Of a DNA stretch of 64,000 nt, positions 2,847 through 44,097 are shown piece after piece. The notes under the pieces were generated by a model that was given only the letters and a program-made list of their open reading frames with translations, did no database searches and had not been told where the DNA came from. Position numbers and translations under genes: made by a program. Every line of letters starts with the position of its first letter. Position 1 is the stretch's first letter. Location: contig JAITCI010000003.1 of NCBI GenBank assembly GCA_031283155.1, positions 18,205 through 82,204 on the forward strand, given 5' to 3'. This stretch comes from Spirochaetota bacterium (GTDB lineage: Bacteria; Spirochaetota; JAGLSM01; JAKPMW01).

Positions 2847-3305
2847 ATGCGAATGCGCATTGCGCTTGCGAGTGATCACGCGGGGGTGCGGCTCAAGGAA
2901 GAACTCGCCCGCTTTCTCGCCAACAGCGGATATGAAATAGAGGATATGGGGCCGCATACCGAGGAGTCGGTCGATTATCCCGATACGATAGCGCCGGCCG
3001 CCCGCGCGGTTGCCGGAGGCAAGGCCGACCGCGCCGTTATCATCTGCGGCTCGGGGATAGGCGCTTCGATAGTCGCCAACAAGATTCGCGGTATCCGCTG
3101 CGTACTCTGCCAGGACGCCTTCGACGCCGAATATTCGCGCCTGCATAACGACGCCAATGTGATCGCCTTCGGCGCGCGCAAACTTGGGATTGAAAAAGCA
3201 ACGGAATGTCTCGTGAAATGGCTCTCCACGCCGTTTGAGGGCGGGCGGCACGCGCAGCGCGTCGCGAAAATCACAAAGATCGAGGATGAAGAGGCCGCAA
3301 GGTAA
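2847..3305 (+). CDS. rpiB: Ribose-5-phosphate isomerase B
   Basis: SDHAG, DYPD, CGSGIG, ANK, HNDAN, FEGGRH motifs; RBS AAGGAGG. Confidence 0.97.
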   Translation: MRMRIALASDHAGVRLKEELARFLANSGYEIEDMGPHTEESVDYPDTIAPAARAVAGGKADRAVIICGSGIGASIVANKIRGIRCVLCQDAFDAEYSRLHNDANVIAFGARKLGIEKATECLVKWLSTPFEGGRHAQRVAKITKIEDEEAAR

Positions 3306-3321
3306 GGCGGGTTCATCCGTT

Positions 3322-3350
3322 GCCCCGCGCCGGTCGCAACATCCTGTTGC
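3322..3350 (+). repeat. Left arm of 29-bp inverted repeat containing hairpin GCAAC-ATCCT-GTTGC
   Basis: gccccgcgccggtcgcaacatcctgttgc matches the reverse complement of 6272-6300 at 26/29. Confidence 0.9.
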
Positions 3351-3441
3351 ACCCGCAGGGGGCATAAACGCGCGGGGTGCTTGCATTGTGCAAGCACGAA
3401 TGAAAGATTAAAAAATTTTGAGGGTAAGGACGACTATCTTG

Positions 3442-5025
3442 TCATGTCCGGGCGATCAAGTTGTATGAGCGGGAAAATAAATCGGGCTGACGTGAGGATA
3501 ACGCAGAGCGGTAATTTTCAAAATCCGCCGGGGATAATACTGCGTCAGGGAAAGTGGATCGAATAAAATTATGTATATGCGCAAAACCAACACAGTCCGC
3601 CAGCTTTTCCAAATCAATTCTTTGCAGTATTTCTTTGGTATAGGGGCGTTTGGAATCCAAAAACGCGATTGACTTGAGAAAATCCAGACATTCAGAGCTA
3701 TTCAGCAGCGAAAGCGTGATGAGAGCGTCGCAAAACTTCTCAAAAGCAAGAAAATAGCATGTATCATCCATCATCATCGGATATTCTCCCCAAATAAGCG
3801 CAAAAAAGGGTTCCTTGTAGAATCCAGAAACACCTACCTTATATTTGGCAAAGGAGTAATCGCCTATTCCAAAAATGGAATATTTCGGGGCGCTTTTATA
3901 AATGGCTGATCGGCGGGCGGCAAAATGGTGTTCATGCCTTTGCAGATATTCCCAAATGTCCGGATCCTGAAATTGAATTTGCGCAGTATCGTCATGTACA
4001 CGGCGCTGCGGAACAATAACAAATTTATGCGTTTGGATAATAGAGTACGATTTCAAGTCAGAACTTTTCACCAATGGAAAAACGTACCGCCCGGGCTGAA
4101 ATTTTAATACTTCACCCAGACCATTCTGAAAAAGCATGGAATCGATTGTTTGCAGCTCCATTACTTTGGAACAGTCATGTTTTACGCCCTGACGCCATTC
4201 ATACTGGCACTTGCCGTCAATATTGGCGTGTAACCCATAATACTGCGTATCAGAATAAAAAGCGTCATCACACCATCCAAATTCTTTTTGTTTTTCGCTG
4301 GTATAAAAATCATAAACAGAACACGTTTTAGTTTTTGGATACCCCAAACGCACCACAAGCAAACCAGCGTCGCAATTAACTCCAAAAATTTCGTTTGCGT
4401 TAAAAATAAATAAGTCCATTGAAGCCATAGGGAAAGCATATTTACGTATTTCCTGAATGATGTTTTTTGCGACAATGGTTTTGCAAAGCATTGCCAAAGT
4501 ACAGTTGTAATCAGAGAAATCATTCAGGAGTTTGAGAATAATATTTTCAGCTATATCAAAGTTTCCCTTTCCGGTCATGGCAGCCAAACCGGCGTGCTTC
4601 TTGAAATTGCTCTTGGCGGGGATATTGGCGCTGCGTAAAGATGATAATTGAGCGCTTGTTACCCATGGGGGATTCCCGATTATCAAAAGAGATTCTTCTG
4701 CGGAAATATTTTTTTTAATATCCCCGAAATCAAAATTAAATACATCGGAATTAAATAATTTGACCTTTGTTGTATTTGCCAGCCGCAATGCCGCATTGTA
4801 ATAATCCTTGTTTATCTCAATACCATAAAGTGAATGTGCGCCGGGAAAGGCAATCAATGCCTCATGGATGAAATTTCCTGTACCAAAAGTAGGTTCAAGA
4901 ATGACGTCAACAGGCAGTTTATAAAAATGTGCCAGCTTCCCGCAAACGGCTTTTGCGAAATTTGCAGGCGTCTGATAATCGCCGTATTCCATGATGCTTT
5001 TTGTATTTCTATCTGGCAATATCAT
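3442..5025 (-). CDS. Type II DNA amino-methyltransferase (gamma-class motif order), M.NspV-like
   Basis: GDYQTP, motif I EPTFGTGNF, motif IV GNPPW, QGVKHDC; overlaps the end of the endonuclease gene; true start may be MEYGD at 4992. Confidence 0.9.
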   Translation of the reverse strand: MILPDRNTKSIMEYGDYQTPANFAKAVCGKLAHFYKLPVDVILEPTFGTGNFIHEALIAFPGAHSLYGIEINKDYYNAALRLANTTKVKLFNSDVFNFDFGDIKKNISAEESLLIIGNPPWVTSAQLSSLRSANIPAKSNFKKHAGLAAMTGKGNFDIAENIILKLLNDFSDYNCTLAMLCKTIVAKNIIQEIRKYAFPMASMDLFIFNANEIFGVNCDAGLLVVRLGYPKTKTCSVYDFYTSEKQKEFGWCDDAFYSDTQYYGLHANIDGKCQYEWRQGVKHDCSKVMELQTIDSMLFQNGLGEVLKFQPGRYVFPLVKSSDLKSYSIIQTHKFVIVPQRRVHDDTAQIQFQDPDIWEYLQRHEHHFAARRSAIYKSAPKYSIFGIGDYSFAKYKVGVSGFYKEPFFALIWGEYPMMMDDTCYFLAFEKFCDALITLSLLNSSECLDFLKSIAFLDSKRPYTKEILQRIDLEKLADCVGFAHIHNFIRSTFPDAVLSPADFENYRSALSSRQPDLFSRSYNLIART

Positions 5026-5671
5026 GATTGATAACTCCGGAAACGCTATTGGACAAGGATATAACCCGTTGGTATTGCAGCCGCCATTGAAGCGCGTTGG
5101 ATATGGTTAAATATCCCTGCGGGACGCCTTTTTGCAGAACTTCGTCAGCCAGTAAACCAAGCGTGATCTCGTCTCCGGGGATACATCTGTCTGCGAAGTA
5201 GGAAAGAATATCTTCTTTATTGCCGCCGTCTTTCAATATTTCCTGAATTCGTTTCGTCGTTGTAAAATCCGCCGTCCTTGACTTATCCACAAATGTACAA
5301 TTAAGAAAACGAAGGTAGCTGCTCTCTCTTGTATCCTCTTTATCATAAACCAGAACGAGCAAATTGTAACCCAAACCGAATATTTTCTGATGCGAAGACT
5401 TATATGGACAAGATGATTGAGGCTGTTTTATGGAGGTTACTTTTATATCTGTATTTATATCCTCAGACGGTAAATCAATACCCGATGCGCTGCTGCCGGG
5501 AGAAACATCAAAACGCTCTCTCAAATAATTTTTCAATCTGTGTTCAACAAAAGTCCCCACTGCTTTTCCGTCTGTAACGCCGATAAGCTGCGGAAAATTT
5601 ATTTTACTCTCAGTAATGCAGAATGCCTTTGCTGCGGCAAAAAGTTTTTTATGGGTAAGATTTTTTTTCAT
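5009..5671 (-). CDS. Type II restriction endonuclease, NspV-like
   Basis: GVTDGKAVGT, SASGIDLP..DIKVTS (PD-(D/E)XK core), QPQSSCP, TISNALQWRLQY; 220 aa; recalled similarity to R.NspV; coupled to the MTase. Confidence 0.85.
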   Translation of the reverse strand: MKKNLTHKKLFAAAKAFCITESKINFPQLIGVTDGKAVGTFVEHRLKNYLRERFDVSPGSSASGIDLPSEDINTDIKVTSIKQPQSSCPYKSSHQKIFGLGYNLLVLVYDKEDTRESSYLRFLNCTFVDKSRTADFTTTKRIQEILKDGGNKEDILSYFADRCIPGDEITLGLLADEVLQKGVPQGYLTISNALQWRLQYQRVISLSNSVSGVINHDIAR

Positions 5672-5754
5672 TGAAGAGCAACTCTCGCTTTTGAATAATG
5701 ACTCAGGTATTCATTGTACATCCTGTGTCGGCAATAACGATAAATATAAGCACC

Positions 5755-6082
5755 GCTTCGTATTGGTCAAAGGTGCAATAAAAGATGCGTTCCGCGCCCG
5801 CCGGGTCGCTGGCATTCGGTTTAACGCGCGTGTCATATACCGCGAACTCCCTGAAATTGGTGGCAATCGAGAGCGCGAGCCCAGCGGTGTAGGCGTAACG
5901 GCGGAGTTGGTAGGCGGATTTGGCGGACTCCCTGATATATATGGGCGGCTTTTTGGCCTCCACAAAAATTTGCGCGCGCCGCCAATACGAAAGCTGTAGT
6001 CCGAGCCGATGCGGACTTTATCCTTGCGCACCACCTCGCGGTAGCTCTCCGCAAAACCCTGATCGTTGGCTATATCCCAGCC
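5755..6082 (-). pseudogene. Remnant of the N-terminal nuclease domain of a type IIG (Eco57I/BpmI-like) R-M enzyme
   Basis: GWDIANDQGFAESYREVV..DYSFRIGGARKF, a 1-nt frameshift in the A5 run at 5964-5968, then VEAKKP..AYQLRRYAYTAGL..TNFREFAVYD; truncated at both ends. Confidence 0.85.
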
Positions 6083-6271
6083 CTTTGGCCACGAATCACA
6101 CGAAAGGAAAGATCGAATAAAAGATTAAAAAGGCAAAAACAATGATTGGGGTAAATACAAACCAAAACTACCATATCGGTGGAACTGCAACCTCCATCGG
6201 GATGTCAACATTTTCGTCTTTTTGGTCTTATTCGATCTTTTATTCACTTACACGATGTAAGCGTCCCGCGC

Positions 6272-6300
6272 GCAACAGGATGTTGCAACTGACGCGGGGC
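6272..6300 (-). repeat. Right arm of 29-bp inverted repeat
   Basis: gcaacaggatgttgcaactgacgcggggc; see 3322-3350. Confidence 0.9.
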
Positions 6301-6484
6301 GTGAATTTCGTGGCTCAAATGTTTTTGGTCTTTTTTCTGCACCGGCGGGACGATTTTTTGGAGGCAAGGCTCTTCGGTTGAATAGAAGAACGGAAGAACA
6401 TTATTTATAAAATACCGGCATTTTCGATATATCTCTGTATGCGGTATATGTTCCCTCGCAAAAACGCGCGGCATCCTTGCCACT

Positions 6485-6510
6485 GCTCGGGACGCAACAT
6501 CCTGTTGCAG
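6485..6510 (+). repeat. Hairpin repeat copy gctcgggacGCAACatcctGTTGCag
   Basis: 23/26 identical to 35307-35332; same core as 3336-3350. Confidence 0.85.
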
Positions 6511-6550
6511 CCCAAAGAAAAAAAGAAAAAAAATATGCGCTCGCGCAGCC

Positions 6551-8017
6551 TCAGGCCCGGCCATACACGTCGTCAAACCGGATGATGTCGTCCTCGCCGA
6601 CGTAGCTTCCGTTCTGCACCTCGATGATCTCAAGCGGAATATCTTCGGGATTCGCGAGCCTGTGCCGTACGCCCGCCGGAACGAAGGCGCTCATATTTGT
6701 TGTAAGAATTTGCCGCTCGCCGCCGATGGTCACCTCGGCGGTACCCGCGATCACCACCCAATGCTCGCTGCGCTTCTCGTGCATTTGCAGGCTAAGATGC
6801 CCCTTTGGATTGACGACTATGTGCTTGATCTTGTAATGATTTGCGGAATGTTTGCCGGTATATTGGTTTCCTTCTTTCAGGATCGTAAAGCTCCCCCAGG
6901 GGCGGTGCGTGGTTGCGGGCGTTTCGGTCAGCGCGGGATGCGCCGCGGCAAGCCGGCAGGTTAAATCCTTCACGCGCTGCGCCTCGCTGCGCGGACACAC
7001 CAGAAGCGCGTCACTTGTATCGACGACGGCGAGATCGCGCACACCCAAAAGCGTGATGAGCCTGTTTTCCGCGAGCGCGAGGCAGCCCGAACTGTCCATG
7101 CAGGCCGCGCTTCCCTGCACCGCGTTTCCGGCGGCGTCATGCGGGATGGCCTGGTACACGGATTCCCATGAGCCGATATCGCTCCACGTGATATCAAGCG
7201 GGACGCACAGGATGTTCTCCGCCTTTTCCATGATCGCGTAATCAATGGAGAGCCGCGGGAGGTCGGCATAAAATTTGATTATGGTTTTATAATCTGTTCC
7301 AAGGGCTTTCGCTATTTCCGGGCAGTGTCGCGCAAAGGCGCTCATGAGCGAGCCGACGGAAAACAGAAACATCCCGCTGTTCCAGAGAAATTGTTTATTT
7401 GTGCCCGAATGGGTACTTGTGCCCGAATGGGTACAAGCAACAAAGCGCTCGGCGGTTGCGCGGTCGGGCTTTTCGCGGAAGGAGCGCACCCCAAGCGGCG
7501 CATCCGGTTTGTGCGCAGAGGGCGCGTTAATCTCAATATAGCCGTAGCCCGTTTCCGCTCTGTCCGGCACAATCCCGAAGGTGATGATGTGGTCTTTTGC
7601 CCAGGGCGACGCCTGGAATATTCGTTCCTGGAATATACTCTCGGGATGGATGATGTGATCGGAGGGCGAAAAAAACAGGAGATCATCGTCCTGCGCACCG
7701 CAGTCCAGGAGATAGCGCAGCGAGAGCGCGATAGCGGGCGCGGTGTTTCTGCCCTCGGGTTCGGGAATCAGGCGGTCGAAGTTTTTACTGAAAACCGCGC
7801 CGAGCTGATTGATGATGGTAAAACGGTGCTGCTCGTCGCTGACCACATACACCTGCTCTTCGCCCGAGAGAGCGGCGAGGCGGCGCGCGGTGGCCTGGAT
7901 GAAACTCTCCTCGCCGAAGAGCCGCATGAACTGCTTGGGCGCGGAGGTTCGCGAGCGCGGCCAGAGCCGTGTCCCGCTCCCGCCGGCCATGATGACGCTG
8001 ATGATTTTTGGTTTCAT
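6551..8017 (-). CDS. manC: Mannose-1-phosphate guanylyltransferase / mannose-6-phosphate isomerase (bifunctional)
   Basis: MAGGSGTRLWPRSR..PKQF, EPEGRNTAPA, PSDH, TGYGYI, FREKP, WNSGMF, SIDYAIME, WSDIG, cupin RPWG..LSLQMH..RSEHW; start taken at ATG 8017. Confidence 0.96.
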   Translation of the reverse strand: MKPKIISVIMAGGSGTRLWPRSRTSAPKQFMRLFGEESFIQATARRLAALSGEEQVYVVSDEQHRFTIINQLGAVFSKNFDRLIPEPEGRNTAPAIALSLRYLLDCGAQDDDLLFFSPSDHIIHPESIFQERIFQASPWAKDHIITFGIVPDRAETGYGYIEINAPSAHKPDAPLGVRSFREKPDRATAERFVACTHSGTSTHSGTNKQFLWNSGMFLFSVGSLMSAFARHCPEIAKALGTDYKTIIKFYADLPRLSIDYAIMEKAENILCVPLDITWSDIGSWESVYQAIPHDAAGNAVQGSAACMDSSGCLALAENRLITLLGVRDLAVVDTSDALLVCPRSEAQRVKDLTCRLAAAHPALTETPATTHRPWGSFTILKEGNQYTGKHSANHYKIKHIVVNPKGHLSLQMHEKRSEHWVVIAGTAEVTIGGERQILTTNMSAFVPAGVRHRLANPEDIPLEIIEVQNGSYVGEDDIIRFDDVYGRA

Positions 8018-8019
8018 GC

Positions 8020-8058
8020 CCCGAAAGATAGGGAAAAATGAACGAGCGGGGAATACGG
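8020..8058 (-). promoter_or_regulatory. Putative sigma70 promoter TTCCCC-N17-TATCTT, copy 1 of a 39-bp duplication
   Basis: 37/39 identical to 34513-34551; the -10 box ends 7 nt before the manC ATG. Confidence 0.6.
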
Positions 8059-8227
8059 ACACAAGCGCGAGGGGATACATACTGCGATCACATTTGCTGT
8101 ACCACAGCCATATTTCCCGTCAGCGCCTCACGCCGCTGCCATATTCTCGCGGCTGGATTTTCTTTTGAGGCGTCACGCTATCTGAGTATTTTTGAATACA
8201 AGAGACGCGGACAAGGAGAGGGATCCC

Positions 8228-25992: not shown

Positions 25993-26241
25993 GAAAATAT
26001 TCTAAACCACTGGAGAGTAATGTTCAAGGCTGCAATATGGGAAGGTGAAGTTTTTGTTTTTTCCCGCGCAGCGGAACGGTTCTTCGGAGGTGGGTGCTTC
26101 GGTTCCACCGAAGAACGGCAAAACACATACCAAAAAATTCAGGCTCGCGGCTTACAGCAGTATGAATCAACTGTTCCCAAAATAATGTTTTGATTTTATC
26201 CTGCCGCATCCGTGGCTAATTTTTCAGACAAGGAGCAAACC

Positions 26242-44001: not shown

Positions 44002-44052
44002 GATTGCAGTTCCGCGCCGATCGCGCCATCCAGGCGCGTACCCTTGCCCCCA

Positions 44053-44097
44053 CAGGGGGTAAAGGCATAAACGCGGAGTGAAAACATCCTTGTTTTC
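44053..44097 (+). repeat. Intergenic hairpin family copy (GAAAACA-TCCT-TGTTTTC)
   Basis: 7-bp stem at 44080-44097; caggggg..ggcataaacgcg shared with 3356-3372. Confidence 0.7.

Follow-up and report, generated by a model that had tools for sequence, protein, structure and literature searches.

INTRODUCTION

Bacterial interspersed mosaic elements (BIMEs) are arrays of species-specific short palindromes that form inverted pairs and cluster in intergenic DNA. In Neisseria, dRS3/NIME (Neisseria intergenic mosaic element) arrays and minimal mobile elements place variable cargo between conserved genes, and the arrays are proposed as recombination points. Here, we analyze a restriction-modification (R-M) block that lies between the conserved genes rpiB and manC of a Spirochaetota bacterium (assembly GCA_031283155.1) among arrays of nested hairpin repeats; its likeness to the Neisseria loci is one of arrangement. 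The block is part of a 64,000-nucleotide (nt) stretch, the window, which is G000:C28:18205-82204, where G000 is the genome under study (2.5 Mb, 94% complete, 53.9% GC). Plain coordinates are window positions. G001 and G002 are genomes of the same genus (congeners), and G003 is a further relative used for comparison.

The report of Furuta et al. (2010, PMC2853133) finds that repeats flank R-M genes more frequently than they do other genes and distinguishes a "transposon-like" class, flanked by inverted repeats, from a "substitution" class. Its transposon-like cases were chosen after removal of high-copy repeats, and the two that it shows have 8-bp target duplications and empty sites. Like loci in that text, ours has R-M genes between imperfect inverted repeats and no transposase. 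Unlike the transposon-like units described there, it has a repeat that is high-copy (31 copies) and nested, shows no target duplication, and has replaced native genes. Thus, it resembles the repeat-flanked and substitution-type R-M loci as that text presents them and fails the transposon-like class.

The repeats are also like those of repetitive extragenic palindrome (REP)/REP doublet forming hairpin (REPIN) systems with REP-associated tyrosine transposases (RAYTs), which are, according to PMC3733652 and PMC3390384, species-specific short palindromes in inverted pairs, clustered in intergenic DNA. Unlike in those systems, no Y1/RAYT gene was found in G000, and inspection of its motif shows neither a GTAG nor a CGTC tag at the end. 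In Pseudomonas, according to PMC3390384, REP deserts are where the mobile and strain-specific genes lie; in contrast, the H, B, and C repeats of G000 are enriched at foreign-gene borders. Lastly, elements made of a GxxExxY gene (TIGR04256/PF13366) plus palindromes resemble one component of our locus, the family-B arms, which are of the same short-unit kind and have the same layout as at the GxxExxY gene of G000. Unlike in those elements, the arms here bracket an R-M pair instead of a nuclease gene, and they are incomplete, one outer end being absent.

RESULTS

Native genes between rpiB and manC have been replaced

In G002, rpiB, an aroE-like gene, a gene for a 328-amino-acid (aa) hypothetical protein, and manC lie within ∼2.1 kb, the label aroE-like being a reading of the translation. 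The order rpiB-aroE-hypothetical is the same in G001, up to the contig end, and in G003 a gene with an aroE-like N terminus directly follows rpiB. The congener aroE is matched in G000 by a 32% paralogue only, and the congener hypothetical gene has no match there. Since the congeners hold aroE and the hypothetical gene in the rpiB-manC gap, we conclude that the block in G000 is a replacement of native genes and not an insertion into an empty site. An earlier note on this DNA had proposed aligning the interval across relatives to find empty or differently loaded sites; the comparison with G001 to G003 showed a differently loaded gap and no empty site in these relatives.

Beyond rpiB, an opposite-strand open reading frame (ORF) of 638 to 665 aa lies between the phosphomannomutase gene and rpiB in G002 (L031:3106-5019) and G003 (L033:5764-7758) and is missing at the corresponding place in G000 (2810-2847). 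G002 has an unrelated hairpin of ∼66 nt just past the manC stop (L031:90-155), likely a terminator or a repeat of its own.

Both mappable breakpoints are at repeat ends

The gap in G000 and its borders contain the following features.

2847 to 3305, forward strand: rpiB (Pfam PF02502), native left neighbor
3295 to 3321, forward strand: truncated family-C fragment, overlapping the rpiB stop; outer left breakpoint
3322 to 3398, forward strand: left hairpin module H, with a 29-mer (3322-3350), a 19-nt insert (3351-3369), and a second hairpin (3378-3396)
3395 to 3428, forward strand: inner half of a left arm of family B, repeated directly at 6109-6131 (20/23 identical)
3442 to 5025, reverse strand: type II DNA methyltransferase (MTase), 527 aa, open frame (PADLOC PDLC03310, E 1e-120)
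5009 to 5671, reverse strand: type II restriction endonuclease (REase), 220 aa (PADLOC PDLC03454, E 4e-74; NCBIfam NF052465, above cutoff)
5703 to 6083, reverse strand: type IIG R-M remnant (PADLOC PDLC03604)
6084 to 6319, no strand assigned: complete family-B palindrome of 236 nt, with left arm (6084-6155), spacer, and right arm (to 6319)
6246 to 6300, reverse strand: right hairpin module H, 55 nt, with a 29-mer (6272-6300); inserted in the right B arm
6343 to 6454, forward strand: complete repeat of family C, in the same orientation as the left C fragment
6453 to 6509, forward strand: family-E repeat, holding a third copy of the 15-nt core of the 29-mer (6494-6508)
6551 to 8080, reverse strand: manC (Pfam PF00483/PF01050), native right neighbor, at the same position in G002

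On the right, the homology of the IIG remnant to the IIG gene of G001 stops within ∼1 nt of the outer end of the B palindrome, and the 23 nt from the palindrome to the next repeat are too short for the 5′ part of IIG. On the left, the array runs from the C fragment through the H module with its insert to the half B arm, which reaches to within 13 nt of the MTase stop; truncation of both the C and the B piece falls exactly at the H module. Both mappable breakpoints are therefore at repeat ends, one where the B palindrome has its outer end, the other in the C fragment. Besides the inverted H pair, the locus holds direct pairs (C-C and B-B).

Family C consists of ∼110-nt repeats with 52 hidden Markov model matches in G000, and the last rpiB codons plus 16 nt after the stop match it. 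When gene-end 25-mers were scored against 14 family-C segments, the score of the rpiB end was reached by 1/1864, rpiB itself being in the set. RpiB ends in ...EEAAR* in G000 versus ...EEAAK* in both congeners. Judging from these sequences, the last codons of rpiB appear to have been overwritten by repeat DNA.

The 6084-6319 palindrome has a DNA fold z of −6.6, with 0/200 shuffles as stable, and the left H module a z of −3.4. The right arm of the palindrome is filled by the 55-nt H module, and the same arm without the H insertion is present at G000:C36. Family-B arms have 53 matches in G000, the ends of B and C repeats are A/T runs, and the B-C-E array recurs on at least 7 other contigs at 64 to 76% identity. 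The earlier note had placed the ends of the block at the two 29-mers. It correctly put the start of the left copy at the 17th base past the rpiB stop (3305) and correctly saw no direct repeat flanking the 3322/6300 ends; other definitions of the ends give only 2- to 3-nt direct matches, at two of four. The 29-mers are not the ends, however: repeat DNA continues outside both copies (3295-3321 and 6301-6509), and the cargo stops at ∼6083, 188 nt inside the right 29-mer end.

Nesting is not confined to this locus. Modules are nested at one fixed point inside H, up to two levels deep, at 3351-3369 in the window and at G000:C26:3111, C46:4518, and C56:85214, which suggests repeated site-specific microinsertion. 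At G000:C46:28139 and C39:15495, the final codons and stop of two IIG genes come from B-arm arrays, which are absent from the end of a related IIG gene on C57. At L138 (G000:C29:16706-19399), an MTase and a BsoBI-like REase lie between divergently oriented family-C elements, the left one H-filled. Elsewhere in the window, a further family-C copy and an H-like copy are found at 26069-26177 and 44012-44090. Within manC, at 7401-7436 on the minus strand, a 16-nt hairpin-like unit that occurs twice in near-tandem lengthens ManC by ∼12 residues in frame relative to the G001 orthologue; the exact 16-mer is unique to this site and resembles the small inserts within H modules. A search of positions 3000-7000 against Rfam gave no matches at E ≤ 1.

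Cargo genes and their homologues

The REase and MTase genes are adjacent, both frames are open, and the pair is conserved among homologous loci, as in a type II R-M system. The IIG remnant has its 5′ end cut off, an internal deletion, and a frameshift, as seen by six-frame translation and by tblastx against the G001 IIG gene. The inventory in the earlier note (R, M, and a IIG remnant between the 29-mers) agrees with the PADLOC and NCBIfam matches, and no recombinase ORF was found between the 29-mer copies. Its description of the block as AT-richer applies to the R-M pair (40.9% GC) and not to the IIG remnant (54.5%, versus a genome mean of 53.9%). Because of this difference in GC, the data suggest that the R-M pair and the IIG gene were acquired separately.

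The earlier label of the pair as NspV-like is a putative one. Nostoc plasmid homologues (∼50%) carry only the name "restriction endonuclease," and TTCGAA, with an observed/expected ratio of 0.61 in G000, is not one of the 14 palindromes that this genome avoids most. Strong avoidance is seen for many 6-bp palindromes (observed/expected, 0.11 to 0.3). Defense genes are expanded relative to the congeners, with 18 matches to Rpn/PDDEXK_2 (versus 2 and 2) and 17 to N6_N4 MTase (versus 3 and 2).

We compared the best 80 of 253 loci with REase homologues. The closest relatives of the REase (top five, 71 to 75%) are from metagenome-assembled genomes of Holophagaceae, Defluviitaleaceae, and Victivallales, a distribution that points to transfer of the R-M pair across phyla. 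All 80 loci are ≤75% identical, so none is the donor. The MTase partner is present in 77/80, and the IIG fragment, the hairpin, and the B arm are present in 0/80; the contexts are unrelated, with DNA similarity confined to coding sequences. At L055:5001-7170, a homologous pair appears to be flanked, nearly spacer-free, by two host genes, of which the upstream one looks like a response regulator by eye; such an arrangement would be an operon insertion.

We also looked for excised or circular forms. Contig joints in the probable source run are explained by paralogues and hence give no evidence of excision: a 6169-to-3324 joint carries 15 linker letters that are present at G000:C56, and a 3415-to-6219 joint fits the gene-less B palindromes on C2, C39, C49, C83, and C87. 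In runs X2 and X3, the matches were short and scattered only.

The 29-mer pair is a real repeat but an abundant one

The sequence at 3322-3350 and the reverse complement of 6272-6300 are identical at 26/29 positions, extendable to 34 nt at 85%; the inverted repeat and its hairpin, reported in the earlier note, are real. Within the 2.5 Mb of G000, however, the 29-mer has 31 copies at ≤5 mismatches and its 15-nt core 28 exact copies, and the left copy has 12 other 29-mer copies that are closer to it than the right one. When 31 copies were randomly placed in 1059 intergenic gaps (5000 placements), 0.35 inverted pairs 0.5 to 5 kb apart were expected; 1 was observed [P(≥1) = 0.30]. The presence of the pair is thus explicable by chance, because 31 copies give at least one inverted pair in 30% of placements. 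The claim that the 29-mers flank the block beyond chance is not confirmed, and with 31 copies the repeat has the abundance that the note had named as grounds against its reading. The only other inverted H pair within 10 kb, on C59, is 7.1 kb apart and encloses host-GC DNA (0.55). We conclude that the inverted pair is a real repeat that was wrongly read as transposon ends.

An exact 14-mer of the hairpin has 31 matches in G000 and 0 in G001 to G003, and a 23-nt hairpin pattern was found in 0/400 other genomes of the phylum. A first metagenome scan for the motif gave 0 matches; the 2 matches in a second scan fall within coding frames of unrelated contigs, and we read them as chance.

Nested hairpin arrays tend to sit at defense-gene borders

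An independent defense set was built from Pfam matches in whole-genome searches, which gave 50 genes after duplicate matches per gene had been merged. Four matches (C10 twice, C1, and C73) were dropped as housekeeping, and window genes were not included. With gap lengths matched, H, B, or C was found in 16/72 gaps at the borders of Pfam-defined defense blocks (8.3 expected; p = 0.004). The signal persisted without Rpn (12/49 versus 5.5 expected; p = 0.004) and without both Rpn and three IIG paralogues (10/44 versus 4.7 expected; p = 0.008). Family C carries most of it, B arms alone reach p = 0.06 overall and 0.03 without Rpn, and a control repeat family was at 0 borders versus 3.1 expected (length matched). 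Unmatched counts (H, B, or C within 600 bp of 17/50 defense genes versus 144/1905 other genes; odds ratio, ∼5) exaggerate the effect, since control genes are mostly internal to operons, and we therefore use the length-matched figures. Thus, nested hairpin arrays tend to sit at defense-gene borders in G000, a modest genome-wide signal.

Gaps with the 29-mer of H also adjoin low-GC genes (13/25 versus 5.5 expected; p = 0.00075, in one of 8 sets and with the window included); these genes lie mostly 5′ of the motif, opposite to the window. In 20 regions picked for having repeats, in which 59/76 proteins were scanned, the neighbors of H and B include NotI-like, BsoBI-like, IIG, MmeI-like, and type I and type III R-M proteins, Mrr, PIN, RelB, BrnT, and Rpn-like proteins.

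DISCUSSION

Arrays as recombination points or as passengers

Three things are directly seen at this locus: a 55-nt H module nested within B and C repeats, native genes replaced, and breakpoints that fall in the C fragment and at the outer B palindrome end. The explanation that we favor, with modest confidence, is that the nested-repeat arrays acted as recombination or deletion points while native genes were lost and a foreign R-M pair arrived. The block is probably not a self-contained jumping cassette. We infer the causal role of the arrays, the order of events, and the cutter. Selfish nested palindromes would have colonized the rpiB-manC gap first. An older IIG gene may have been present and then trimmed at repeats, with the R-M pair coming after it, so that foreign genes would have entered in at least two steps, and aroE and its neighbor would have been lost alongside recombination or deletion at the arrays. 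Recombination between direct copies (C-C, H-H, or B-B) could have made the cuts; deletion of this kind would be expected to yield the left chimera of C fragment, H, and B half-arm. On this view, the inverted 29-mers would be incidental, the result of separate insertions of H modules into B arms that face opposite ways.

Several observations count against this model. The congeners are distant (RpiB is 82 to 83% identical), so the loss of native genes may be unrelated to the gain of cargo. The order of events was not observed because no same-species strain was found: the stretch matched in one run only, a termite-gut metagenome that is its probable source. Homology-based capture requires repeats on the incoming DNA, and 0/80 homologous loci carry them. 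Enrichment at defense borders is only ∼2-fold, 33/50 defense genes are without H, B, or C within 600 bp, some cases are nonindependent in that the Rpn-like paralogues share mosaic flanks, and the gene calls that define the borders in G000 are home-made. The 29-mer alone is not significantly enriched there (5 versus 2.8 expected; p = 0.13, length matched). The suggestion in the earlier note that the hairpin repeats are landing sites for defense cargo therefore finds moderate support, which applies to the larger composite arrays and not to the 29-mer.

Alternatively, the repeats may be passengers, selfish hairpins that inserted after the foreign genes, favoring AT-rich or dispensable DNA, and that had no role in the arrival of the R-M pair. 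This is a possible account, though we think it rather improbable. It draws on the 31 copies of the 29-mer and the 30% chance of an inverted pair, on ∼550 repeat clusters in G000 (one per 4.5 kb), on the A/T runs at B and C ends, on the modest size of the border enrichment, and on R-M homologues that lie in unrelated contexts, with homology limited to coding sequence and no repeats. However, insertion into IIG would leave its 5′ part beyond the palindrome, where there is no room for it; the left C and B pieces are cut exactly at the H module; and another abundant repeat family shows no enrichment at defense borders.

Family-B arms and GxxExxY nucleases

The B arms, which we suspected to resemble repeats near GxxExxY genes, lead to a different explanation. 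They may be the ends of a GxxExxY-nuclease element, with the nuclease acting in trans to move or swap the DNA between the outermost arms, here the R-M pair. The layout at the sole GxxExxY gene in G000 (C33:5854-6249), an arm pair, the gene, and a reverse arm, is common to the window cassette and to two Rpn-like genes (C28 end and C80), and cargo lies between opposed B arms at C10, C17, and C82. Of 30 GxxExxY loci, three gave no score (one because of a short flank, two because they could not be located); of the other 27, 17 have a flanking inverted repeat scoring ≥12, versus 0/29 rpiB loci. The IIG breakpoint at the B end also fits.

On the other hand, the cassette does not have two complete outer B arms: the left one is without its outer end and is joined to the C fragment. 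The arms also bracket a 705-aa gene of host GC at C69, and the enrichment of B arms alone is borderline. As for cargo moving together with its arms, the Rpn paralogues do share mosaic arm-containing flanks, but these could stem from ordinary duplication or gene conversion, and the R-M pair is single-copy, with arms in 0/80 homologous loci. The literature searched, with most subscription journals outside its scope, describes no activity of a GxxExxY protein and contains no account of GxxExxY-linked repeats or of REP-bracketed R-M cargo. As for other mobilizing enzymes, Y1_Tnp (PF01797) had no match at E ≤ 0.01 in G000, and the control matched in 6/14 genomes. Y2/IS91 also had no match in G000, but its control matched nowhere, so that search is uninformative; IS110 gave one marginal 30-residue match (E 5.6e-4). 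We regard it as unlikely that the nuclease moved this R-M pair. Just as doubtful is the wider proposal that GxxExxY nucleases are trans-acting mobilizers of a palindrome family that captures and shuffles defense genes (R-M, toxin-antitoxin, and Rpn), with the cassette as a cargo-loaded copy. If true, such capture would be a REP-like gene-capture system without a classical transposase.

The reading put forward in the earlier note, in which the 29-mers are the terminal repeats of a nonautonomous transposon moved by a RAYT/HUH enzyme, is largely refuted and very improbable. In its favor, the inverted repeat and its hairpin exist, target duplication is absent, and PMC2853133 describes R-M units flanked by inverted repeats without a transposase. 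Against it, the copies are internal to larger repeats, 12 others are nearer the left copy than the right one is, G000 has no PF01797 match under the search described above, the site is a replacement, and low-GC genes lie mostly on the other side of the H motif.

Significance

Taken by itself, the locus holds little that is out of the ordinary: an R-M pair of a common kind, flanked by two copies of a repeat that abounds in this genome. What is worth keeping is at the level of the genome: in this bacterium, which probably comes from a termite gut, the nested hairpin arrays show a tendency to lie at defense-gene borders, the opposite of the Pseudomonas REP deserts described in PMC3390384. In addition, one arm family is common to the cassette and to the GxxExxY nuclease gene of G000. 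If the GxxExxY nuclease moves arm-flanked cargo, this would give a function to a widespread uncharacterized family and a route by which R-M systems may spread without transposases.

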